A stretch of DNA of 64,000 nucleotides. Origin: Mobula hypostoma. Taxonomy: Eukaryota. The notes beneath the pieces were generated by a model. It did no database searches, had not been told where the DNA came from, and saw only the letters and a program-made list of their open reading frames with translations. Numbering within the stretch: the stretch's first letter is position 1; every line of letters starts with the position of its first letter. The position numbers and the translations under genes were made by a program. Where the stretch lies: positions 77,130,001 through 77,194,000 of the forward strand of contig NC_086108.1 in assembly GCF_963921235.1 (NCBI RefSeq). Direction: 5' to 3'. Shown here piece by piece: positions 2,976 to 60,124 of this stretch.

Positions 2976-3825
2976 TTTATAAATTAACTTACGTTTATTT
3001 CTATATTCTCACTTTTTTTCAGACTACTGTAGAGCTGATTTTGTTCATGGTGAGCTACTTCTGGCTTTCTTCAAAATAATTTTGCTGCAGTTTGAAATAA
3101 TTTAGTGGAGAAGTCAGGCCTTAACAGGGGTTGTATAAAAGGAGGGCTTTGTGCAGGACCCCATAATCACAGCTAACCAAATGAAAACACTGCTGTGCTC
3201 TGTTATCTGCTAGTAGTGTATTAGTACCTGCTGGAAGAAAGGCTGTGCAATAAGAGAGAACTTGGGTTATTCAAAAACTGAGCAAGTCTAGTGTTAGCCC
3301 AGTGTGGGGAAAGAGAGAGGGAGAGGTGTGTTTGACCACTGGTTTTTGATTGTCTATGGAGTTGTAGTATTCACAACACTGTCATAAAATAGAACCACAA
3401 TATCTTTGTTTGATCCTTCAAAGCTCATAGAAATGCTGATGTTTACATGTTTAGCAGATGCTAATAAGTTTTTTAAAGATTTTATTTCTCTACTAAAATA
3501 GATTGAGAATGTATAATTTTTCTTGAATTGGAAACACTGATCACTGCAGTGCAATTCAAGATGATGACCTTGTGACATAAAATTATACCAAGCAGCTACC
3601 ACAAATATCAGACAAAAGAGAGGAAGAAAACTGAAGTACTGTTTGCTCAGGACTGGGAGGGATGTGGGGGAATGGTAGAGACTGCAAATCTTTGTGTTAT
3701 ATTTATGCAGAATCAGGAGTTTCTATTGTATGCAGCAGTTGAGTTTACCTTGAATATAAGATCTCTCAGTCGCATTGGTACTGCAATCATGGGAAATGAT
3801 TTGGTTAGTTACTGGAACTCATGCC

Positions 3826-3958
3826 TCCTGACGAAGGGTCTCGGCCTGAAACGTCGACTGTACCTCTTCCTAGAGATGCTGCCTGGCCTGCTGCGTTCAC
3901 CAGCAACTTTGATGTGCGTTGCTTGAATTTCCAGCATCAGCAGAATTCCTCGTGTTTG
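3826..3958 (+). mobile_element. Penelope terminal-repeat-only insertion with hammerhead core
   Basis: CTGACGAAGGGTCTCGGCCTGAAACGTCGACTG, then the same terminal repeat seen at 29500-29596 and 54740-54872. Confidence 0.85.
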
Positions 3959-4705
3959 CCTCATCAGAGTTTTGCTGGATTGTCCTCCAAACTGGATAAG
4001 AGTATATGGATGTAGTATTCAGCTTAGAAGGAGGTAAAGAGAAAGGGAAGGGTATTCTATTGTCAAGTGTAACATTAGCATTACTGTAATAATTGTTTGG
4101 CATTTAACTGAGAAAGTAAGTTTTTTTTTTGGCTATTTACTGCTAGTCTCTCATCAGCACTTCTGTACAGCGGGTGATAATTCAGTTGTAGACATGAATA
4201 GACAAGAGGAGACACAAGTCCTCTGGTAGCCTGATCAATGTCTGATGAAAAAAAAATATATTGAAAATTTACTAGCATATCCTGATTTGCTACTTAGTAA
4301 ATTATATGTTTTACAATGTTATAAAACTTCTGAAATATGTTTGATTGTGTCTGCATTTAAGAAAATAAATAATTTGAAGAAACTTTCATATTCAGCATAA
4401 TTGATGAAATCTTCCATTTCTGATCTAGTTTGAGTTTAATTGAGGCCACAGTTAATGCAGTAAATCAGTGTTTGGGGTTTATTATAACTCTTTAACATCG
4501 TTCTCCAGTCTCCAAGTGGTTCACCCATTATCGTTATATGGTGCATTTTAATGAATAGACTCAAAAATAGATTGCTCTGTTGCTGCTCCACTTTAATAAT
4601 AAACCACAAATTGTTAATTCTTCATTACCTTTTCAATTGTGCAGCCTGTAGCTAAGTCTTTTCCACCTCCAATTCAGAACAGAATATGCAAATGAAAATT
4701 CTGAA

Positions 4706-5470
4706 CTCGATCAGAATCGTTTACTATCACTCACATACATTGTGAAATTTGTTGTTTTGAGGCAGTAGTACAGTGCAATACATAAAAAATACTATAATTT
4801 GTAATAAATAAGTAGTGCAAAAGATTAATAATGAAGTAGTGTTCACAATTTCATGGACAGTTCAGAGATCTGATGTCAGAGAGGGAGAAGTTGTTCCTTA
4901 AAGAAGCTGAGTGTGGGTCTTCAGATCCCTGCCCCCCCCCCCCATACTATTGTAGCATTATGTTTTGGATATGTGTAGTTAGAGTAGTTCCAATCATGGT
5001 ACAAAGTAACTTAGAGTTCAAAGTTCAAAGTAAGTTTTATTATCAAGGTATATGTCACCGTGTACTGTATAACCCTGAGATTCATTTTCCTGCAAACATC
5101 CTCAGCAAACTTATAGAATAATAACTTTAACAGGAAGAATGGAAGGTCAACTAGAGTGGAGAAGACAAAAAACTGTGCAAATACAAATATAAATAAACAG
5201 TAATAAATAATGAGAACATGAGATAACAAGGTAGAGAGCCCTTAAAGTGAGATCATTGGTTGTGGGAGTGTAGTTGTCCCCTTTGAGCAAGAGCCTGATG
5301 GTTGAGGGGTAGTAATTGTTCTTGAATCTGGTGGTGTGAGTGCTGAGGCTCTTGTACCTGTTGCCTGATGGCAGCAGCGAGAAAAGAGCATGGCCTGGTT
5401 GGGGGGGATCTCTGTTGCTGGATGCTGCTTTCCTACGACAGCATTTGTGATGAAATCCCTCATGATTCAT
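4706..5470 (-). mobile_element. Rex1/Babar 3' end fragments (two adjacent pieces)
   Basis: ORF 5147-5566 contains HALFSLLPSGNRYKSL...TTRFKNNYYPSTIRLL; typical Rex1 3' UTR tails. Confidence 0.8.
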
Positions 5471-5779
5471 GACTTTAGAACAGATAGAAGAAGAAGCCAA
5501 AGGAATAACGTACACATGATGAAGTATTTTGGCCCAAAACATCGACTTTTTATCTCTTTCCATCAATGCTGTCTGACCTGCTGAGTTCCACCAACATTTT
5601 GTGTGATTTACTACGGATTTTCAGAATCTCTTGTGTTCGCAAAGATCTGGAAGTGCTTTCAATGTCCGCCTGTAGATGCATCACATTCAAGTGGAAGTGG
5701 TCAAGTCCCACGCTCTTGTGAGATGAATTAAATAATTTTCCAAAATGTTCAATTTACAATTTACAATCATCTCCTTTTT

Positions 5780-5884
5780 ACAGTAATAAATAATGAGAAC
5801 ATGAGATAACAAGGTAGAGAGCCCTTAAAGTGAGATCATTGGTTGTGGGAGTGTAGTTGTCCCCTTTGAGCAAGAGCCTGATGG
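5780..5884. repeat. Exact 105-bp copy of 5197-5301
   Basis: Base-by-base identical by eye (ACAGTAATAAATAATGAG...GAGCCTGATGG). Confidence 0.9.
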
Positions 5885-6109
5885 ACATTTTAAGTTCTTG
5901 CCTGATGACTTTGTAATGGGTAATAGAAAAGTAAGCTCTGATAAGCAAAACCTCTCACTCCCTAAAATCCACAAGCATTATCTAGGGTGTGAAATAATAT
6001 TAAGGATGGTATCCAGACAGGAAAAATAATAAACACACTTTTGTCTTAGAAATTTTTAATGAATGAATCTGCATCACTTTTGGGGATGATTAGTATTGCG
6101 GAGCATCTC

Positions 6110-6405
6110 ATAGTATCGCAGAGTTATAGAGACGTACAGCATAGAAATGGCCACTTTGGCTCACGTCATCCGTACTAACCATGATCACTATTAATGCTAA
6201 TTTCATTTGTCCACATTAGGCTCATATCTCTCTTCCCTTTTCCTGTCCAACTACCTGTAAAAATGCTTTTTAAATGCTGTAATTACATATATCTCTACCA
6301 CTTCCTCTGGCTGCTCGTTCCATACACCACTAGATGCTGTGTGAAAAACTTGCCCTTCAGATTTCCTTTAAAATTTCCCTTCTCATTTGCAACGAATGCC
6401 CTCTA
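6110..6405 (-). mobile_element. CR1 LINE 3' end fragment
   Basis: Reverse complement of the CR1 3' UTR/tail seen at 39900-40157. Confidence 0.7.
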
Positions 6406-6411
6406 GATATA

Positions 6412-6992
6412 CACTCAGTGGTCACTTTATTACATACACCCTGTATGTCTGCTTATTAATGCAAATATCTAGTCAGCCAATCATGTGGCAGCAACTCAAT
6501 GCATAAAAGCATGCAGGCATGGTCAAGAGGTTCAGTTGTTGTTGAGACCAAAATTCAGAATGGAGAAGTAATATGATCTAAGTGACTTTGATCATGGAAT
6601 TATAATTGGTGTCAGATGGGGTGATTTGAGAATCTCAGAAACTGCTGATCTCCTGGGAATTTTGCACACAAGTCTGTAAGGTTTACAAACAATGCTGCAG
6701 AAAACAAAAAAAACAAAAAAAAAATCCAATGAACAGCCGTTCTGTGGGCAAAATTGCCTTGTTAATGAAAGAGGTCAGACGTGATTGGCCGGACTAATTC
6801 GAGATGACAGGAAGGTGAGAGTAACTCAACCACGCGTTACAACAGTGGTGTGCAGAAGAGCATCTCTAACCCCACAACACATCGAACCTTGGAGTGGATG
6901 GGCAGTAGCAGCAGAAGACCACAAACACAGGAATGCACTCAGTAGCCACTTCATTAGTTATGTCCTGTACCCAATACAGTGGCCACTGAATA
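6412..6992 (+). mobile_element. Tc1/mariner non-autonomous element (internally deleted)
   Basis: TA|CACTCAGTGGTCACTTTATT ... AATACAGTGGCCACTGA TIRs; decayed transposase N-terminus (DLSDFDHGIIIGVRWGDLRISETADLLG). Confidence 0.9.
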
Positions 6993-9025: not shown

Positions 9026-9849
9026 AAGCTGAAACTACAGGAAATTGCTTTTATTGAATAAAACTTAATGCTCTTATTTGAAAAGAACTTTTTCCATGTG
9101 TGTATTTAAACATCATCTATAAGTCAGCTCTTTCGACAGATCTGCAATATTTCAGTATGATACTGGAATGTCAGCTAGGGTTTCAGAATAGAACATAGAA
9201 TAGAATCAGGTTTATTTTCACTGATATATGTTTTGAAATTTGTTGTTTTGCAGCCGCAGTAGAGAGCAAGACATAATCTAAATGTATGCTTACTTCTCAA
9301 AGGAGATAAAAACATATTTTTTAAAACTTCCTCTGGTTTTGTAACTCTTTTGAGATTGGCATGCCAGATTTGAATTAAGCATCAGTGAGCTGGTATCAAG
9401 CAGGGTCAGAGAGGATGGGTATAAGGCAGGAAGTGAATTTCAGTGACATGATGATAAAGCAGACTGCTGGACTGATTGTACTACTTTCCACCAGGAGAGA
9501 AATAATCATAATATTTTCACAGGATGGACATGTGTGCACCTATGCCACACAAGGTGTCCTATTTTAGATCACTTTGTAAAAACCTGGCTCATTTTCAATC
9601 TGGGTGCTGACAGCTGGATGATTGATCTGTGGAGTGTGCTGGCTGGCCCACCATTCTGATGGTGAAGAATTCGTGCAATTTATTAGACAGAATTTTGCAC
9701 ATTGTGCGTGCTACAATCAAAATGCAAACCTCTGCTACGACGAGTTTGTCCGCTCTCATCTCTGACTCAGAGCTGACATATCTGATAAGGGTATTGCAAA
9801 CAATCTCGATGAGTACAAAAAAGCCTTGTTATCATTGTAGGAAGAAGAA

Positions 9850-10045
9850 TTGAAAACATTTGCATCTATATAGTTTTGCATAATGTTCTCATGACATCTT
9901 AAACTGCTTTACTGTCAGCAACGTTCTTTTGAGAGAAATGTAACTGTCACGAGCATAATGCAAAATTCTACAGAAAGCAGATGAGATGAAAGGCCAGTTT
10001 TTTTGTATAAAGTCAATAGAGGAAAGAATATTTGATAAAAGTGCC
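9850..10045 (-). mobile_element. Degenerate DeuSINE (SacSINE1-like) 3' part
   Basis: Resembles the reverse complement of the Deu-domain/tail (ATTTGCATCTATATAG...AAACTGCTTTACTGTCA); further remnants near 8400-8460, 9090-9180, 19400-19500, 55170-55480 and 57545-57710. Confidence 0.5.
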
Positions 10046-10249
10046 TGAAATTACAGCACAGAAACAGGATGTTCAGCCCAACCAGCCCATGAAATTATTT
10101 ATGCACTATTCAACACTCCGTACCTTTCTTTATCTAAGCCTCTTCCCCTCTATTCCTTGCTCTATCACCTAAATCTTCTCCTGATTCACTGTACCATTCC
10201 CTATTGTAGTAAGTTAAACATCCTCTTTCCATTATGGCTGAGTAAGTTT

Positions 10250-10425
10250 CTCCTAAGTTCTCATTTATGTACCCCATTGCTCTGACCATTGCAATAAGTA
10301 AGTACATGTTCGGCACAGCATTGTGGGCCGAAGGGCCTATTTTGTGCTGTAGTTTTTCTATGTTTCTCTGTTTCTATGACATACAGTTTTGGACTCCACT
10401 TTGGCACTCGTTGGTAAACATGGGA
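10250..10425 (+). repeat. 176-bp direct repeat, left copy (putative TSD)
   Basis: Matches 10912-11087 with 7 substitutions and no indels by my count. Confidence 0.92.
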
Positions 10426-10911
10426 CCAGACATTGTCCCAGTGTCTGAGTCTACTAAGCAAGTGGTGCTGCTGGAGCTGACAGTCCCATGGGAAGATAGC
10501 TTGGAAGAGGCCTTTGAAAGGAAGCTCTCCAAGTACGCAGGACTGGTCAGCAACTGTCAGCAGGCTGGATGGAGAGCGAGGTGTCTCCCAGTGGAGGTTG
10601 GTTGTAGGGGATTCGTAGCCCGTTCTCTGGTTAGAGCCTTTAGTATTTTGGGCATCGAGGGAGAGAGGAAGAGGAGAGCCATCCGCAGTACCACCGATGC
10701 GGCAGAGAGGGCCTCAAGATGGCTGTGGCTCAAAAAAGGGGAGCCATGGAGTCATAAGTAGCTAGCCATCTGGACACAAGCTGGGTTCTGATCAGCCCCG
10801 GCTGGGTCACTTGGAGGAGGTTGTATGATGTTGAAAGACCCGAAACACCCAATGATTCCAGGAACATCACTGAAGATGTGTCCAGAAGCATCAATAGATG
10901 TATGTACACAG
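10426..10911 (+). mobile_element. HERO-like (RLE-bearing) non-LTR retrotransposon, 5'-truncated
   Basis: Open frame PDIV...KQVVLLELTVPWEDSLEEAFERKLSKY...CLPVEVGCRGF...AAERASRWLWLKK* is a PD-(D/E)xK restriction-like endonuclease C-terminus typical of HERO; ~150-bp 3' UTR follows. Confidence 0.85.
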
Positions 10912-11087
10912 CTCCTAAGTCCTCATTTATGTACCCCATTGCTCTGACCATTGCAATAAGTAAGTACATGTTTGGCACAGCATTGTGGGCCGAAGGGCCT
11001 ATTTTGTGCTGTAGTTTTTCTGTGTTTCTATGTTTCTATGACATACAATTTTGTACTCCACTTTGGCAATCGTTGGTAAACATGGGA
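10912..11087 (+). repeat. 176-bp direct repeat, right copy (putative TSD)
   Basis: Begins immediately after the HERO 3' UTR (…GATGTATGTACACAG|CTCCTAAG). Confidence 0.92.
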
Positions 11088-11273
11088 ACGGGTGGTGTGA
11101 CTTTTGTAAGGTACCAGACACAGTGAAGCATATGACCTTGGTGTGCCACAGATAATCATTAGAACGCGGGAAGCATCTGAAGAAGGAACAGTTAAGTCAT
11201 GTAGTACGCTTTTAATTAAAAGGGATTTGTGAGCAGGATCTGAACTCCGCCATGGCTCCTGTCATACTTCATT

Positions 11274-11289
11274 ACAGTAGGTGGCGGTA
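11274..11289 (+). promoter_or_regulatory. CTCF-like motif
   Basis: ACAGTAGGTGGCGGTA is close to the CTCF core CCASYAGRKGGCRS; lies in apparently unique sequence. Confidence 0.4.
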
Positions 11290-11934
11290 ATGCACCTTTC
11301 TGAATGTGTGAGTTGCCATTAGCACAAAAGGAGAAGAAGTCAGGTCCCCTCCGTGAAACTGAAAGCAACAACAAACAGGACATGTCAAAGAATGCAACTG
11401 TCCTGGAGTGTGCAAGAGCAGCCAAACGTGTCCATGCTGTGAATTGTGTGCACCCAATAAACACAATGCCAGCGCTGCCAGACAGGGACAATGAGAATTA
11501 CAGGGCTACTGAGGAGTGGAGGGAGGGAATGAAGAAATGACTTGTGGCAGACCTAATCTGTTACACATCCTGTTCAGTCTTTAAATTAATGTTATCACAA
11601 TGCGTACAATATTATTGTCACTAATACCCTGATCTTTCATTGCTTTTATTTTAATGCACTCTTCCACATTCAATAGCCTTAACAGAAAATTCTGTTACAT
11701 ACATGGATAGAAAAATCCTTCCTATTGATTAATTTCATTTTAGTTGAAGTCTTAAGTGTAATTCCCTTTCTCTCTTACAATGAGGTCTGGCGATTACACT
11801 TAATGGTGTAATTGATGTTTGATCGTCACTGTCCACATGAGTTTTATTTCTGTCCCAATATTGATTGTTTCATCGTTTCTTTAGAATTAACTTATTGCTA
11901 ATTAGCAAAGTTAATCTAATCTATATTAATCTGT

Positions 11935-13613: not shown

Positions 13614-14365
13614 AATTGAATTGAATTGAATTGACTTTATTACTTACATCCTTCATATATATGAGGAGTAAAAATCTTTATGTTACGTCTCTGTCTAATG
13701 TGCAATGTGCAATTTATAGTAATTTATAATAAATATTATGTACAACAGGACAATCAGTATAACATAGAAATACAGTTGTGTCAGCATGAATTAATTAGTC
13801 TGATGGCCTGGTGGAAGAAGCTGTCCCGGAGCCTGTTGGTCCTGGCTTTTATGCTGTGGTACCATTTCCTAGATGGTAGCAGCTGGGACAGTTTGTGGTT
13901 GGGGTGACTTGGGTCCCCAATCGTCCTTCAGGCCCTTTTCACACACCTGTCTTTGTAAATGTCTTGAATAGTGGGAAGTTCACATCTACAGATGCACTGG
14001 GCTGTCCACACCACTCTCTGCAGAGTCCTACAATTAAGGGAAGTACAGTTTCTATACCAGGCAGTGATGCAGCCGGTCAGGATGCTCTCAATTGTGCCCC
14101 TGTAGAAAGTTCTTAGGATTTTGGAGCCCATACTAAATTTCTTCAATCGTCTGAGGTGAAAGAGGCACTGTTGTGCTTTTTTCAGCACACAGCTGGTATG
14201 TACAGACCACGCAAGATCCTCGATGATGCTTATTCTGAGGAACTCAAAGCTGTTTTGAGTTCTCAACCCCAGATCCATTGATGTCAATAGGGGTTAGTCT
14301 GTCTCCATTCCTCCTGTAATCTACAACCAGCTCCTTTGTTTATGTGACGTTGAGGGAGAGGGTGT
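13614..14365 (-). mobile_element. Rex1/Babar LINE 3' fragment
   Basis: ORF 13928-14287 KKAQQCLFHLRRLKKF...FYRGTIESILTGCITAWY; (AATTG)n tail; same subfamily as 33250-34458. Confidence 0.9.
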
Positions 14366-14429
14366 TCCATATTGCTCCATATCTATAACACACTTTCAGG
14401 CTGTTCTTAAAATAGTGAAATGTTATGAC

Positions 14430-28666: not shown

Positions 28667-29596
28667 GATCCCACCACTAAGCATATCTTTCCCTCCCCGC
28701 CTCTCTCTGCATTCCGCAGGGATCGCTCCCTACACAACTCCCTTGTCCATTCGTCCCCCCCATCCCTCCCCACTGATCTCCCTCCTGGCACTTATCCGTG
28801 TAAGCGGAACAAGTGCTACACATGCCCTTACACTTCCTCCCTTACCACCATTCAGGGCCCCAAACAGTCCTTCCAGGTGAGGCATCACTTCACCTGTGAG
28901 TCGACTGGGGTGATATACTGCGTCCGGTGCTCCCAATGTGGCCTTTTATATATTGGTGAGACCCGACGCAGACTGGGAGACCGCTTTGCTGAACATCTAC
29001 GCTCTGTCCGCCAGAGAAAGCAGGATCTCCCAGTGGCCACACATTTTAATTCCACATCCCATTCCCATTCTGACATGTCTATCCACGGCCTCCTCTACTG
29101 TAAAGATGAAGCCACACTCAGGTTGGAGGAACAACACCTTATATTCCGTCTGGGTAGCCTCCAACCTGATGGCATGAACATTGACTTCTCTAACTTCCGC
29201 TAGGCCCCACCTCCCCCTCGTACCCCATCTGTTACTCTTTTTAATGCACACATTCTTTCTCTCACTCTCCTTTTTCTCCCTCTGTCCCTCTGAATATACC
29301 TCTTGCCCATCCTCTGGGTCACCCCCCCCCCCGTCTTTCTTCCTGGACCTCCTGTCCCATGATCCTCTCGCATCCCCTTCTGCCTATCACCTGTCCAGCT
29401 CTCGGCTCCATCCCTCCCCCTCCTGTCTTCTCCTATCATTTTGCATCTCCCCCTCCCCCTCCAGCTTTCAAATCCCTTACTCACTCTTCCTTCAGTTAGT
29501 CCTGACGAAGGGTCTCGGCCTGAAATGTCGACTGCGCCTCTTCCTATAGATGTTGCCTGGCCTGCTGCGTTCACCAGCAACTTTGATGTATGTTGC
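28667..29596 (+). mobile_element. Penelope-like element, 5'-truncated, intact GIY-YIG endonuclease domain
   Basis: ORF 28877-29203 HFTCESTGVIYCVRCSQCGLLYIGETRRRLGDRFAEH...VATHFN...LGSLQPDGMN; possible TSD CAGAATAG; sits inside an older CR1 remnant. Confidence 0.93.
29498..29533 (+). ncRNA. Minimal type I hammerhead ribozyme motif
   Basis: AGTC-CTGACGA-AGG(GTCTCGG)CCT-GAAATGTC-GACT: stem I AGTC/GACT, stem II AGG/CCT, GUC cleavage triplet. Confidence 0.75.
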
Positions 29597-30981
29597 CAGA
29601 ATAGAAATAGATGGGTTAATGTTGGGGTGTGAAAATATGACCAGTGGGGTGCAGAAGGGATTGGTGCAAGAGCCTAGTTGTTCATAATCTCTGTTTATGG
29701 TCTAGATAAGAGGACCAAGTATCACAACTGATGAAAATATTGGTGCAATGCAGGTTGTGAAGGTGAATTCTAAGAAGCATCTAGACAAATATTTGAATTG
29801 CCAAGGCATAAGAAACTAATGACTAATAGGATTAAATGTAGAGAGTTACATCAGGTGGTATAGACATGATAGGCTGAAGAGCCTGTTTCTGTTATACCAT
29901 GACTCCATAGTAATGCTAGGAGTCTTCAGAGATACATAGGCATCTCTTCTCAGCGGCTGAACCTTCAAGCAGAGATCAATATTTATTCAGGTATTGAAGA
30001 AATCAATACAGGAACATAGCACTGGGTAAAAGATACTATGTTTGAGGAACTGAGTGGGCCATCCTGCTCATAATTCACACGCTCTTAGAAGCATAACGTT
30101 TCTGTTTTGCTTTCACAATCTTGTTGCTATTCATAACATTATTATTTTTGATGACTTGTGTTCAAAGGTATATTATCTGTGATTCTTATATTTGACAATT
30201 AGCTTCAGTAAATATCTAGCCATTTCCTTAAGAAATAATGATGCTTGAAGCTTTTGTCAGATGAGTCTGTGGTGACCAAATGCAAATCTAATAGGGGCGC
30301 CGAGAAGGTTCAACTGTGACTCCAAAATTAAATGTTCGCCTCTTTTGAAATTTACTATTTTTGGCTCCGATGTGATATTTTTCACAATGAGGTCACCTTG
30401 CTTGCCCTATTGCTGCAGGGATCAGTGCATATTGGATTGATGTTTCAGGGCCTGTACACAACTGGCTATTTCAATCTGCAATCACAATTCAGCATTTCTG
30501 CTTCTCGGGCTCCTGAGGAAGTGAAGTGAGTTCCGAGAGACTGGAATGACTTCAATCCCAAATTAAAGGGGAGGCTTGGCTCCAGGCTTCGTATCTTTAA
30601 TTGACTTGGGGCCAAGACAGTAATCATGTAATTTGGTTTTGTGACAGGGTGCCAGCAAAAATTCCACATGGAGCCAGAATCAGTTGCATGGCTCCACTCT
30701 GCTCTTACCTGTGTTTTTAGATATGTCCTCAACGAATGTGTGTTTTTTTAAAATGAATTTTAAATTTTGGCAACGGGAATGGGGAAAAAGCATTTAACAG
30801 CAGTTACAAAACAGATTATATTCCATAATGAAATGGAAACTAAATGCACAGAGTTTAGTTTCGCTCAATCAGAATGAGAATCAGGTTTATCATTGTCAAC
30901 CTGTGTCATGAAATTTGTTGTTTTGTGGCAGCAATACAGTGTAAGACACAGAAATTACAAATGACAATTTATAAAAATATA

Positions 30982-33250: not shown

Positions 33251-34458
33251 ACCAACACAACTGATCGACAGATGACGCAATAGCCACTGCCCTACACACT
33301 GTCCTTACACATCTGGAGACGAAGGGTGCTTATGTGAGAATGCTGTTCTTGGACTACAGTTCAGCATTCAACACCATAGCTCCATCCAGGCTCGACAAGA
33401 AGCTCAGGGACCCCGGCCTTGACCCTACCTTGTGCAGCTGGATTCTGGACGTCCTGCCAGATTGCCAGCAGGTTGTAAGAGTGGGCTCCCTCACCTCCAC
33501 CCCTCTGACTCTCAATACAGGAGCCTCTCAGGGCTGCATACTGAGTCCCCTCCTTTACTCCCTGTATACCCATGACTGTATCACCAACCACAGCTCCAAT
33601 CTGCTAATTAAATTTGCCAACAACACTTACATTGATTGACCTTATCTCAAACAATAACAAGGTGGCCTACAAGGAAGAGTCATCTCTCTGACACAGTGGT
33701 GTCAAGAAAACAACCTCTCCCTCAATGTCGCAAAATCAAAGGAGCTGGTTGTGGATTACAGGAGGAATGGAGATGAGCTAACCCCTATTGACATCAATGG
33801 ATCTGGGGTTGAGAGGGTAAACAGCTTCAAGTTCCTTGGCATCCACATCACTGAGGACCTCATGTGGTCTGTACACACCAGCTGTGTGGTGAAAAAGGCA
33901 GAACAGTGCCTCTTTCACCTCAGACAGTTGAGGAAGTTTGGTATGGGCCCCAAAATCCTAAGAACTTTCTACAGGGGTACAATTGAGAGCATCCTGACTG
34001 GCTGCATCACTGCCTGGTATGGGAACTGTACCTCCCTTAATCACAGGACTCTGCAGAGAGTGGTGCAGACAGCCCAGCACATCTGTAGTTGTGAACTTCC
34101 CATGATTCAGGACATTTACAGGGACAGGTGTGTGAAAAGGGCCCATAGGATCATTGGAGATACAAGCCATCCCAACCACAATCTATTCCAGCTGCTACCA
34201 TCCGGGAAGTGGCACCACAGCATAAAAGCCAGGACAAATAGGCTCCGGGACAGCTTCTTTCACCAGACCATCAGACTGATGAACTCATGCTGATTTGAGT
34301 GTACTCTATATTACATTGACTGTTCTATTTATTATAAATTATTATAAATTACTGTGATTGCACATTGATTAGATTAATTGATTGATTAGATGGAGACGTA
34401 ACATAACGATTTTTACTCCTCATGTATGTGAAGGATGTAAGAAATAAAGTCAATTTAA
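33250..34458 (+). mobile_element. Rex1/Babar LINE RT and 3' end
   Basis: ORFs 33334-33639 (RMLFLDYSSAFNTI...GASQGCILSPLLYSLYTHDC) and 33751-34293. Confidence 0.93.
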
Positions 34459-34464
34459 TACTCC

Positions 34465-51869: not shown

Positions 51870-52510
51870 TCAAAGGTTAAAGTAAATTTATTATCGTAGT
51901 ATGTGTATGTCACCATATACTACCTTGCGATTCATTTTCTTGCAGGCATTCACAGTAGAACAAAGACGTATAGCAAAATCAATGAAAAGCTAAACACAAA
52001 CACTGACAAACAATCAACGTACAAAAGAGGCTTAAAAGCTGCAATTACAAAACAATAAATAAATAAATAAATAAATACATACATACATACATACATACAT
52101 ACTGAGAACGTGAGTTGTAAAATCCTTGAAAGTGAGTCCGTAGATTTGGAATCAGTTCAGTGTGGAGGAGAGGTTATCCATGCTGGTTCAGGAGCCTGAT
52201 AGCTGAAGTGTAATAACGGTTCCTGAACATGATGATGTGGGACTTAAGGCTCTTGTACCTCCTTCGCTATGGCAACAGTGAGGAGAGAGCACAACCTGGA
52301 TGGTGCTTGTTCTTGATGACAGAAGCTACTTCCTTGTGGCATCGCTACTTGTAGATGTGCTGAACTGAGGGGAGGGCTTCTCCTTTGAAAGTGGGTTGTA
52401 TCAAACAGTTTTTGTAGACTTTTCCTTTCTTGGGAATCGGCGTTTCCATACCAGGCCGGGACGCAACCAGTCAGGGTACTCTCCACAGTGCATCAGAGTC
52501 ATCTTGTAAC
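51870..52510 (-). mobile_element. Rex1-type 3' end with (AAAT)n(ACAT)n microsatellite
   Basis: ORF 52244-52486 MESTLTGCVPAWYGN; microsatellite at ~52053-52101. Confidence 0.75.
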
Positions 52511-54363: not shown

Positions 54364-54872
54364 GAGGAACAACACCTTATATTCCGTCTGGGTAGCCTCC
54401 AACCTGATGGCATGAACATCGACTTCTCTAACTTCCGCTAATGCCCCACCTCCCCCTTGTACCCCATCTGTTACTTATTTTTATATACACATTCTTTCTC
54501 TCACTCTCCTTTTTCTCCCTCTGTCCCTCTGAATATACCCCTTGCCCATCCTCTGGGTCCTCCCCGCCTCCTTGTCTTTCTTCCCGGACCTCCTGTCCCA
54601 TGATCCTCTCGTATCCCTTTTGCCTATCACCTGTCCAGCTCTTGGCTCCATCCCTCCCCCTCCTGTCTTCTCCTATCATTTTGGATCTCCCCCTCCCCCT
54701 CCAACTTTCAAATCCCTTACTCACTCTTCCTTCAGTTAGTCCTGACGAAGGGTCTCGGCCTGAAATGTCGACTGCACCTCTTCCGAGAGATGCTGCTTGG
54801 CCTGTTGCGTTCACCAGCAACTTTTATGTGTGTTGCTTGAATTTCCAGCATCTGCAGAATTCCTGTTGTTTG
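54364..54872 (+). mobile_element. Penelope-like element 3' end (young subfamily)
   Basis: Nearly identical to 29126-29596; hammerhead motif at 54738-54773. Confidence 0.92.
54738..54773 (+). ncRNA. Minimal type I hammerhead ribozyme motif
   Basis: AGTC-CTGACGA-AGG(GTCTCGG)CCT-GAAATGTC-GACT. Confidence 0.75.
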
Positions 54873-58425: not shown

Positions 58426-60124
58426 GAATCAGAATCAGGTTTAATATCATTGGCATATGTCATGAAATTTTGTTGTTATGTGATAGCATTACATTGCAAT
58501 ACATAATAAAAACTGTAGATTACAGTAAGAAGTACATATATATATTTAAAAAGTTAAATTAAATAAGTAGTGCAATAAGAGAAAAATAAAGTAGAGAGGT
58601 TGTGTGCATGGGTTGAATGTTCATTCAGAAATCTGATGGCAGACGGGAAGAAGCAGTTCTTGAATTGTTGAGTGTGTGCTGTCAGGCTCTTGTACCTCCT
58701 CCCTGAGGGTAACAATGAGAAGAGGGCATCTCCTAGTTGAAGGGGTTCCTTAATGATGGATGCCACCTTTTTGAGGCATCACTCCTTGAAGATGTATTGG
58801 ATGCTAGAGAGGCTAGTGCTGGTGAAATATAGCTGCTGTCGTGCCTCCTTTGTAACTGCGTCAATATGTTGGGCCCAGGATAGATCCTCAGAGATGCTGA
58901 CACCCAGGAACTTGAAAAATGCTCAGTCTTTGCACTTCTGATCCTTCTATGAGGACTGGTGTGTGTTATCTTGTCTTACCCTTGAAGTCCACAATCAATT
59001 CTTTGGTCTTATTGAAGCTGAGTGCAAGGTTGTTGCTGTCACACCACTGATATATCTTCCTCTTGAACGCTTTCTCATCACCATCTAAAACTCTGACAAC
59101 AACAGTTGTGTTGTCAGCAATTTTATGGATGGCATTCGAGCTGTGCTTAGCCACATAGTCATGGGTGTAGAAAGAGTAGAGCAGTGGGCAAAGATCACAT
59201 CCTTGAGGTGCGCCAGTGCTGATTACCAACAAGGTGGAGATTTTATTTCCAATCCGCACAGACTGTGAGGAAGTCAAGGATTCACTTGCAGAGGGAGGTA
59301 CTGTACAGAGGCCCTGATTTTGGAGCTTTTTGATCAGACGTGTAGGAATGATTGTGTTAAATGCTGAACTGTAGTGAACAAACAGTAGTCTGACCTAAGT
59401 ATTGTATTGTCCAGGTGATCCAAGGCCATGTGAAGATCCAATGAGATCACATCCACTGCAGATCTACTTTTGGTGATGGGCAATTTGCAGTGGGTCCAGG
59501 TCCTTGCTGAGGGAGGTGTTGATTCTGGCCATGACCAACTTCTCAAAACACTTCATCATCTTAGATGTGAGTGCCACTGGATAGTCATTAAGGCAGCTCA
59601 CACTGCCCTTCTTGGGCACTGGTATGATTGTTGCCATTTTGAAGCAAGTAGGAACTTCTGACTGTAGCAATGAGGCTTTGAAAATGTCTCTGAACACACC
59701 CATCCGTGATTGGCACAAGTTTCGGGGCTCTACCAGGTACACCATCTGGGCCCATTGCCTCGCAAGGCTTCATCCTATTGAAAGGCATTCTGACATTGGC
59801 CTCCAAGACAAAGATCACAGGGTCACCGGGTGCTACAGGGATCATCATAGCTGTAGTTCTATTCTCCATGTCAAAGCGTGCATAAAAGTCATTGAGCTCA
59901 TCTGGGAGTGAAGCATCACTGCCATTCATGAGGTTAGTTATTGCTTATAGGAACCCTGCCAGAGTTGATGTGCATCTGATTCCACCTCTAACCTCAATTA
60001 GAATTGTTCTTTTGCTCTTGAGATAGCCCTCTGTAAGTTGTACCTGGCTTTCTTTATAGTCCTGGATTACCAGACTTGAATGCCACGGATCTAGCCCTCA
60101 GAAGATTACGAACCTCCTGGTTCC
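58426..60124 (-). mobile_element. Rex1/Babar LINE, 5'-truncated
   Basis: ORFs 59588-59929 (DASLPDELNDFYARFD), 59464-59745 (VPTCFKMATIIPVPKK), 58966-59277 (GAPQGC..PLLYSFYTHD) and 58554-58766. Confidence 0.93.

Follow-up and report, generated by a model that had tools for sequence, protein, structure and literature searches.

Among described elements, LINEs of the HERO clade (HEROFr, HEROTn, HERODr) are the closest to the one reported here. According to the accessible part of PMC2790886, a zinc motif and a PD..D/E endonuclease come after the reverse transcriptase (RT) in a single HERO ORF, and passages of PMC3636483 describe the clade as not site-specific. Neither a ribozyme nor a target-site duplication (TSD) is mentioned for HERO in the accessible passages of PMC2790886, PMC3636483, PMC7650587, PMC13580325, PMC4838377, PMC3088659, PMC2777235 and 10.64898/2026.07.22.740005, and a tandem layout likewise goes unmentioned in the HERO-related passages of the literature. 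The literature search returned no paper on HERO TSDs or on a HERO ribozyme; most of the subscription literature lay outside its scope, and an earlier description is possible.

Duplications of more than 100 bp adjoining both ends of an insertion, as found at the present locus, are known from R9, Dualen-4b and HERV-K. The TSD of R9, named in the preliminary description as a known exception, is indeed 126 bp long, but it is not the sole case, the duplications of Dualen-4b having a median of 900 bp (passages of PMC9977147). R9 differs from the element studied here in being site-specific for rDNA and is grouped with the R2 A and D clades, not with HERO (PMC4838377, in part), while Dualen differs in having two endonucleases and a long duplication in over half of its insertions (PMC9977147, in part). 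The long duplications of HERV-K (111 and 250 bp, with up to 250 bp validated) are sporadic, as appears to be the case here (accessible text of PMC5488345).

The RLE LINE R2 likewise carries a self-cleaving RNA that processes a longer transcript, a 5′ HDV-like ribozyme (accessible parts of PMC7650587 and PMC13580325); it differs in ribozyme class and in its position at the 5′ end only, whereas the fold described below occupies the 3′ UTR and recurs ahead of the 5′ UTR. In Penelope-like elements, the start of reverse transcription is internal and AC-rich; their hammerhead needs protein to cleave and is dispensable for insertion in vitro (PMC11167929). Hammerheads of type SGC (Eckert et al. 2023), as far as the accessible text of PMC10085705 goes, are known only outside known genomes and are assumed to have an uninterrupted block C, the pairing of the strand after CUGANGA with the strand before GAAA being taken as necessary.

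The 176-bp duplication and its HERO-like insert

The window, that is, the whole stretch of 64,000 nucleotides of Mobula hypostoma DNA analysed here, contains a truncated retroelement between two direct repeats (Table 1). Alignment confirmed the repeats of the preliminary description: the two units of 176 nt each are 96% identical (spacing 662; BLAST E 7e-80), differ by seven substitutions at unit positions 10, 62, 111, 119, 137, 143 and 158 with no indels, and abut the insert exactly at both ends.

Table 1. Features of the duplicated locus and of the predicted fold in the 3′ UTR (window coordinates).
Feature	Position	Strand	Basis
Left copy of the 176-bp duplicated host segment	10250..10425	+	Repeat alignment; start at single-copy depth in runs X1 and X5
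Older high-copy repeat, 3′ tail, inside left unit	10296..10378	+	Loose ends at 10296; right end read from sequence
Microhomology at 5′ truncation joint	10421..10425	+	Alignment to L004
HERO-like LINE ORF C-terminus, 111 codons and stop (restriction-like endonuclease half)	10426..10761	+	Endonuclease motif; protein matches
3′ UTR, 150 nt, AC-rich end without poly-A	10762..10911	+	Alignment to related loci
Hammerhead-like fold; outer helix Pa, 10770-10778 with 10877-10885	10770..10885	+	Motif search, covariation, covariance model
Hairpin Pc, palindromic hexamer in loop (10789-10794)	10779..10803	+	Anchored motif search
Stem II equivalent, 10804-10808 with 10837-10841, immediately preceding GAAA	10804..10841	+	Helix statistics
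Extra helix Pd, 10810-10815 with 10857-10862	10810..10862	+	Helix statistics
Block S: stem III strand 10819-10824, stem I strand 10826-10831	10819..10831	+	Motif search
Predicted cleavage site in block S, after 10825 (GUA)	10825	+	Motif search
Block G: GAAA and partner strand of stem III	10842..10850	+	Motif search
Block C: stem I partner strand 10864-10869, CUGANGA 10870-10876	10864..10876	+	Motif search
Right copy of the 176-bp duplicated host segment	10912..11087	+	Adjoins element 3′ end; repeat alignment
Older low-copy dispersed repeat across right duplication border	11055..11174	.	X1 record 6 and two shorter-overlap records

Contigs from four of 23 listed public runs were aligned to window positions 9700-11600. 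The contig of run X1, a run that may stem from the source sample, matched 9700-10289 with 0 differences and ended exactly 30 nt past the first difference between the units, the point at which a 31-mer graph has to merge two units. Depth in X1 was 13.5 in the bin 10212-10275 compared with 9.05 for the left contig, which by hand calculation fits a double-depth piece from 10260. The duplication is present in the reads and not merely a product of assembly, and this species carries two units. Since the start of the unit is at single-copy depth (10212-10275) and the element exceeds 1e5 (summed depth above 3e5 in its 3′ part), the 176-mer is host target DNA, as had been proposed, and not element sequence. 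An old CR1 tail had also been claimed for the duplicated DNA; a high-copy repeat tail is indeed present, with loose ends, very high depth in four of four runs and weak matches elsewhere in the window, and we label it CR1-like. The repeat across the right border was covered by an X1 record with 18 differences that extends 33 nt to the left of the border; because this older repeat spans it, the end of the unit and the right flank were contiguous before the duplication event.

The insert itself (10426-10911, 486 nt) is 5′-truncated and consists of an open frame of 111 codons, a stop and the 3′ UTR. The frame contains an endonuclease motif, PD..ELTVPWE..K..KY, up to the stop, and the DNA is 90% identical to the related locus L004 from 10421 to 10910, with poly-A absent. 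A search against longer proteins gave 165 matches, the best being the C-termini of RT proteins from one ray and several teleosts (91–92% identical); these relatives carry RVT_1 and, below cut-off, zf-RVT, that is, RT, zinc motif and endonuclease in a single ORF. The RT BAC82598.1 of Takifugu, which we take to be HEROFr, is 64% identical to the endonuclease piece. The earlier identification as a 5′-truncated HERO-like RLE LINE without poly-A is upheld by the motif, the RT relatives and the alignment to L004, the HERO assignment being one of pairwise identity to BAC82598.1 plus the motif, with no RT within the window. The element resembles the HERO clade in its single ORF with RT, zinc motif and endonuclease and in being dispersed rather than site-specific: its depth in X1 is about four orders over single copy, and flanks are unrelated among related loci. 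The Pfam search with the 111-aa piece gave no domain match, no second copy was found in the 64-kb window by blastn, tblastn or the RNA model described below, and no relative was found among viral contigs. A tblastn alignment running 66 nt into the unit was rejected as part of the ORF, DNA likeness to L004 stopping at 10421.

Several further observations concern the element family and the window. The endonuclease piece (10426-10758; proteins P0004-P0010) is 90–92% identical between ray and flatfish, hake, conger, pipefish and herring, a similarity that suggests horizontal transfer of this element family. Two contigs of 350–500 nt in bacterial isolate genomes (L001, L002) consist of HERO-like coding sequence throughout and are probably contamination with animal DNA. 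A diverged 3′ UTR copy (10795-10915) terminates record 5 of X1 and record 30 of X5 (1915 and 1919 nt) and sits at an identical position in the two records; it probably goes back to an older insertion that the two organisms share. A 105-bp direct repeat at 5197-5301 and 5780-5884 is 100% identical over a mixed spacer of 478 bp; its first copy extends into a host repeat (matching 52073-52331 and 58530-58763), the second does not, which suggests recent templated copying within the locus rather than a TSD. Dispersed repeat pairs are found at 29126-29602 and 54364-54842 (93% over 480 nt) and at 13625-14366 and 33709-34459 (83% over 756 nt).

A hammerhead-like fold in the 3′ UTR

The 3′ UTR contains a fold that the preliminary description does not mention. 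Side-by-side comparison of 3′ UTRs revealed a common order of core motifs, namely a cleavage site (NUH), GAAA and CUGANGA (S-G-C, a non-circular order), with the hammerhead core nucleotides CUGANGA, GAAA and U16.1-H17 all present. Six helices recur, designated Pa, Pc, II, Pd, III and I. The strand following CUGANGA and the strand preceding GAAA pair with two separate upstream strands, between which hairpin Pc is inserted with little or no gap; A9 leads into helix Pa and G12 comes after helix II. In the predicted structure, a four-way junction takes the place of the classic stem II. Among 42 distinct well-paired copies, 38 have G-C as the first pair of the stem II equivalent, beside G12, and 32 have a palindromic Pc loop, with three different palindromes, which suggests a kissing loop. 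Minimum-free-energy folding recovered Pa and Pc alone, as is to be expected of a pseudoknotted fold. Stem III of the window copy contains a single mismatch; the base that would restore the pair accounts for only about 7% of the X1 depth at that position.

Conservation was assessed on relatives from a metagenome scan, the best 80 of 184 together with three short contigs of prokaryote genomes that matched by protein (83 loci). Of the 69 sequences, that of the window among them, in which the anchored search covered 200 nt or more, 58 contain the core; in these the cleavage triplet is GUC in 25, GUU in 17, GUA in 14 and AUC in one, with G at position 17 in one poorly fitted copy. In a plain MAFFT alignment of 29 hand-picked sequences, 93.5% of 1069 cells were paired, compared with 64.2% after shuffling and 32–43% after sliding by 1–3 columns; the slid control is at a disadvantage in this comparison, the window copy having served to draw the structure. 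Changes on both sides were seen in 30 of the 38 pairs in this alignment, and the G-U pairs fall on the sense strand. Among 28 non-redundant copies (less than 80% alike), all six helices were 89–96% paired against shuffled means of 49–78%, and stems I and III, which flank the cleavage site, reached 96% and 93% against 53% and 78%; the helix registers in these and in the anchored-search statistics were picked by best pairing, which inflates the figures, and kinship of sequences alone can exceed shuffles without structure. The classic stem II, by contrast, was paired in 39% of these copies and in 39% after shuffling, that is, at the level of chance.

A covariance model gave one match in the window and recognized 69 of the 83 loci; among the 55 loci on which it had not been trained, it recognized 41. 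Six of the 14 missed loci end within 40 nt of the ORF match. As a control, 80 prokaryotic loci containing a chance 16-mer of the fold yielded nothing better than E 0.34. A search of Rfam was negative for the window stretch (E up to 5) and for six loci (E up to 1). Sequence conservation and covariation make it almost certain that the 3′ UTR contains a conserved RNA structure.

With type-SGC hammerheads the fold shares the S-G-C order, a pseudoknot, the full core and one extra helix (PMC10085705, in part). It differs in that its block C is interrupted, the pairing held to be necessary in type SGC standing at the shuffled level. In type SGC the extra helix joins stems I and II; helix Pd, which is supported by pairing, is a possible counterpart. 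The core and stems I and III are common to hammerheads of types I, II and III as well, but their circular orders (CGS, GSC, SCG) are not encountered here. On this comparison of predicted structures, the fold is hammerhead-like yet outside all described types, and it is apparently undescribed so far.

Layout of related elements and the role of the fold

The 5′ start of related elements is marked by a conserved hairpin, for which a loose pattern gave 19 matches, 14 of them judged real and five chance; the fold precedes the hairpin in all 14 (12 by motif, two by the model). Ten contigs wrap around with periods of 3643–3836 nt, which in short-read assemblies proves a 3′-to-5′ junction but not the length of an array. 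Dispersed copies of one related family end a few bases before the 5′ hairpin, and at one locus (L039) a complete upstream fold starts at the host flank. Judged from these contigs, related HERO-like elements lie head to tail or else have one end repeated, and their insertions stop at an internal AC-rich point; the junctions come from related families, the locus L004, 90% identical to the insert, being cut inside its 5′ UTR. Direct repeats in L008, L015, L030, L042 and L039 were rejected as TSDs because there the 3′ UTR of the element recurs ahead of its 5′ end, and those in L032, L035, L037, L052, L053 and L065 were rejected as wrap-arounds of the unit.

At its start, the 5′ UTR also carries several short, conserved hairpins in succession, their loops rich in purines (L008 118-260, L069 2794-2900 and 12 similar loci). 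Locus L069 contains two HERO-like families (201-2727 and 3931-6449), 70% alike, head to tail and with the same palindromic loop; the join may have arisen by template switching within a mixed RNA dimer or be an artefact of chimeric assembly.

Penelope-like elements and non-LTR retrozymes are likewise tandem or partial-tandem with a hammerhead in the repeated end, and likewise have an AC-rich internal start and no poly-A (PMC11167929; accessible part of 10.64898/2026.07.22.740005). Penelope-like elements differ in having a GIY-YIG endonuclease instead of an RLE, and their type I hammerhead is a classic circular permutation. By analogy, the most likely role of the fold would be the processing of tandem or read-through transcripts, with uncleaved or religated RNA serving as template, and reverse transcription would start at an internal AC-rich site just before the 5′ hairpin of the next unit. 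Such an internal start would explain both the missing poly-A and the head-to-tail junctions, and the chances for and against a Penelope-like start of this kind appear evenly balanced.

In a more elaborate version, the ribozyme would cut at both of its copies in the tandem transcript and the unit RNA would be circularised, reverse transcription proceeding round the circle from the internal start as in retrozymes. The wrapping contigs and the complete upstream fold at the host flank of L039 are in keeping with this, and a religated site would account for the intact insertions; wrap-around, however, demonstrates the 3′-to-5′ junction only, and uncleaved tandem transcripts give the same pattern; a circular template is a serious alternative, though less likely than not. 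The wider picture, of HERO LINEs with an active, newly wired hammerhead, RNA dimers formed via the palindromic kissing loop, Penelope- or retrozyme-like replication and possible circles, is offered only tentatively.

The fold is predicted, with good probability, to self-cleave after the NUH triplet. Hammerheads cleave after C, U or A at position 17, not after G, and the copies examined vary among these three bases and avoid G in agreement with this rule. Inserted copies keep the cleavage site intact, and cleavage may occur at one stage or with protein only. Alternatively, the fold could be a non-catalytic platform for binding the RT protein, derived from a hammerhead or merely resembling one. 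The missing classic stem II, the uncleaved site in insertions and the dispensability of the Penelope-like hammerhead for insertion in vitro (PMC11167929) are in line with such a platform; against it stand the variation at position 17 and the retention of all core nucleotides across families 45–92% alike in protein, and we regard it as unlikely.

Origin of the duplication and significance of the fold

The replication model outlined above leaves the 176-bp duplication, a separate event, unexplained. Four of the last five bases of the unit, including the last two, match the element's own next upstream bases. Microhomology is usual at the joints of truncated LINEs.

Reads of a second organism (organism B, run X5) show 16 differences in 917 nt from the window. 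The X5 contig runs unbroken over 9700-10324 at single-copy depth, past the point 10289 at which the X1 contig breaks, and a second X5 contig covers 11004-11295, also at single-copy depth. Because the contigs of X5 and X1 break differently, we infer a single unit in organism B; an unbroken X5 contig with two units needs a private change in a stretch of 11 nt (about 1 in 10 or less by hand estimate). A joint skipping 662 nt was absent among the 15 X5 joints listed of 81 (84% of X5 read), and no contig spanning the site in organism B was found among those listed. The joints listed in the contigs read were rejected as cross-matches of repeats with sides mostly below 30 nt, and runs X20 and X13, with zero depth at 10148-10275, are uninformative on the site. 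The contig evidence favours an empty site with one unit in organism B. Divergence of the units is 2.0% per copy, of the same order as that of the insert from the read majority (at least 1.6%).

The duplication was probably made at insertion, and the best reading is a one-off repair product, its length set by that repair event and not by a fixed enzyme stagger. Target-primed reverse transcription would begin from a bottom-strand nick at 10250 and halt after 486 nt; host repair would then join the cDNA end, through a microhomology of 2–5 nt, to the top strand 176 bp downstream, and fill-in of both gaps would double the 176 bp. We hold this repair route, together with the single unit in the relative, to be reasonably well founded.

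Alternatively, a tandem duplication of 176 bp existed beforehand and the element entered between its units without a TSD, or local templated copying took place later. HERO-like copies usually lack a TSD, a local duplication of 105 bp that holds no element is found 5 kb away, the units differ at seven sites compared with the 3.1 expected from the distance between the two organisms for an event after their split (P=0.037), in mild conflict with a duplication made at insertion, and recombination between long repeats can also restore a single unit (PMC5488345, in part); yet a prior tandem would require the element to have hit a single position out of 176, organism B apparently has one unit, and microhomology is present at the 5′ joint, which together make it improbable.

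The preliminary description had instead suggested that this family may make its second nick some 176 bp from the first, roughly a nucleosome repeat length. In its full form the idea is a routine stagger, of nucleosome or Okazaki-fragment size, with long TSDs as a family trait. This was examined at the 41 of 83 loci with flanks of 150 nt or more on either side, the remaining 42 being left out; the test is indirect because these loci belong to other families and come from short-read metagenome assemblies, in which long duplications are broken or scrambled, and because their 5′ ends are approximate. By local flank alignment (best 80 of 184 relatives plus three), a flanking duplication was absent in 40 of the 41, including the nearest fish-type loci with both flanks (L018, L027), and ambiguous in one, a rate of 1/41 (95% interval 0.06–13%). 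Short TSDs were at control level, the longest junction match averaging 4.6 nt compared with 4.7 nt in controls at 34 loci with a defined 3′ end. At the ambiguous locus, L023, a truncated copy is flanked by a 96-bp repeat of 99% identity, one of three repeated pieces of 52, 15 and 96 nt (2230-2498 and 3118-3226) with about 50 nt on the left side only, a pattern that a prior tandem duplication with the element inside its second unit fits equally well.

The clean TSD geometry in the window, the precedents of R9 and Dualen, which prove long duplications possible for RLE-bearing LINEs (PMC9977147, in part), the repeat of L023 and the concealment of long TSDs by short-read assembly all speak for the trait, but with the 40 relatives and the other account of L023 against it, a routine stagger of this kind has little probability, and the nucleosome link finds no support, as one length cannot show it. 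On these comparisons the 176-bp duplication does not look like a family trait and appears sporadic; it is ordinary in kind, larger precedents having been published. The overall explanation, in which the duplication and the fold in the 3′ UTR are two separate things, is the one we favour with some confidence.

The significance of the locus lies in what the fold would mean if it cleaves. As a natural hammerhead, it would then contradict the assumption that stem II must follow CUGANGA without interruption, and animal genomes would contain a non-circularly permuted ribozyme in very many copies. Cleavage would explain how RNA ends are defined in a non-site-specific RLE LINE without poly-A, and a clade of LINEs would have converged on the layout of Penelope. 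As the 3′ UTR is the RNA handle of R2-type insertion tools, the structure is also of practical interest.
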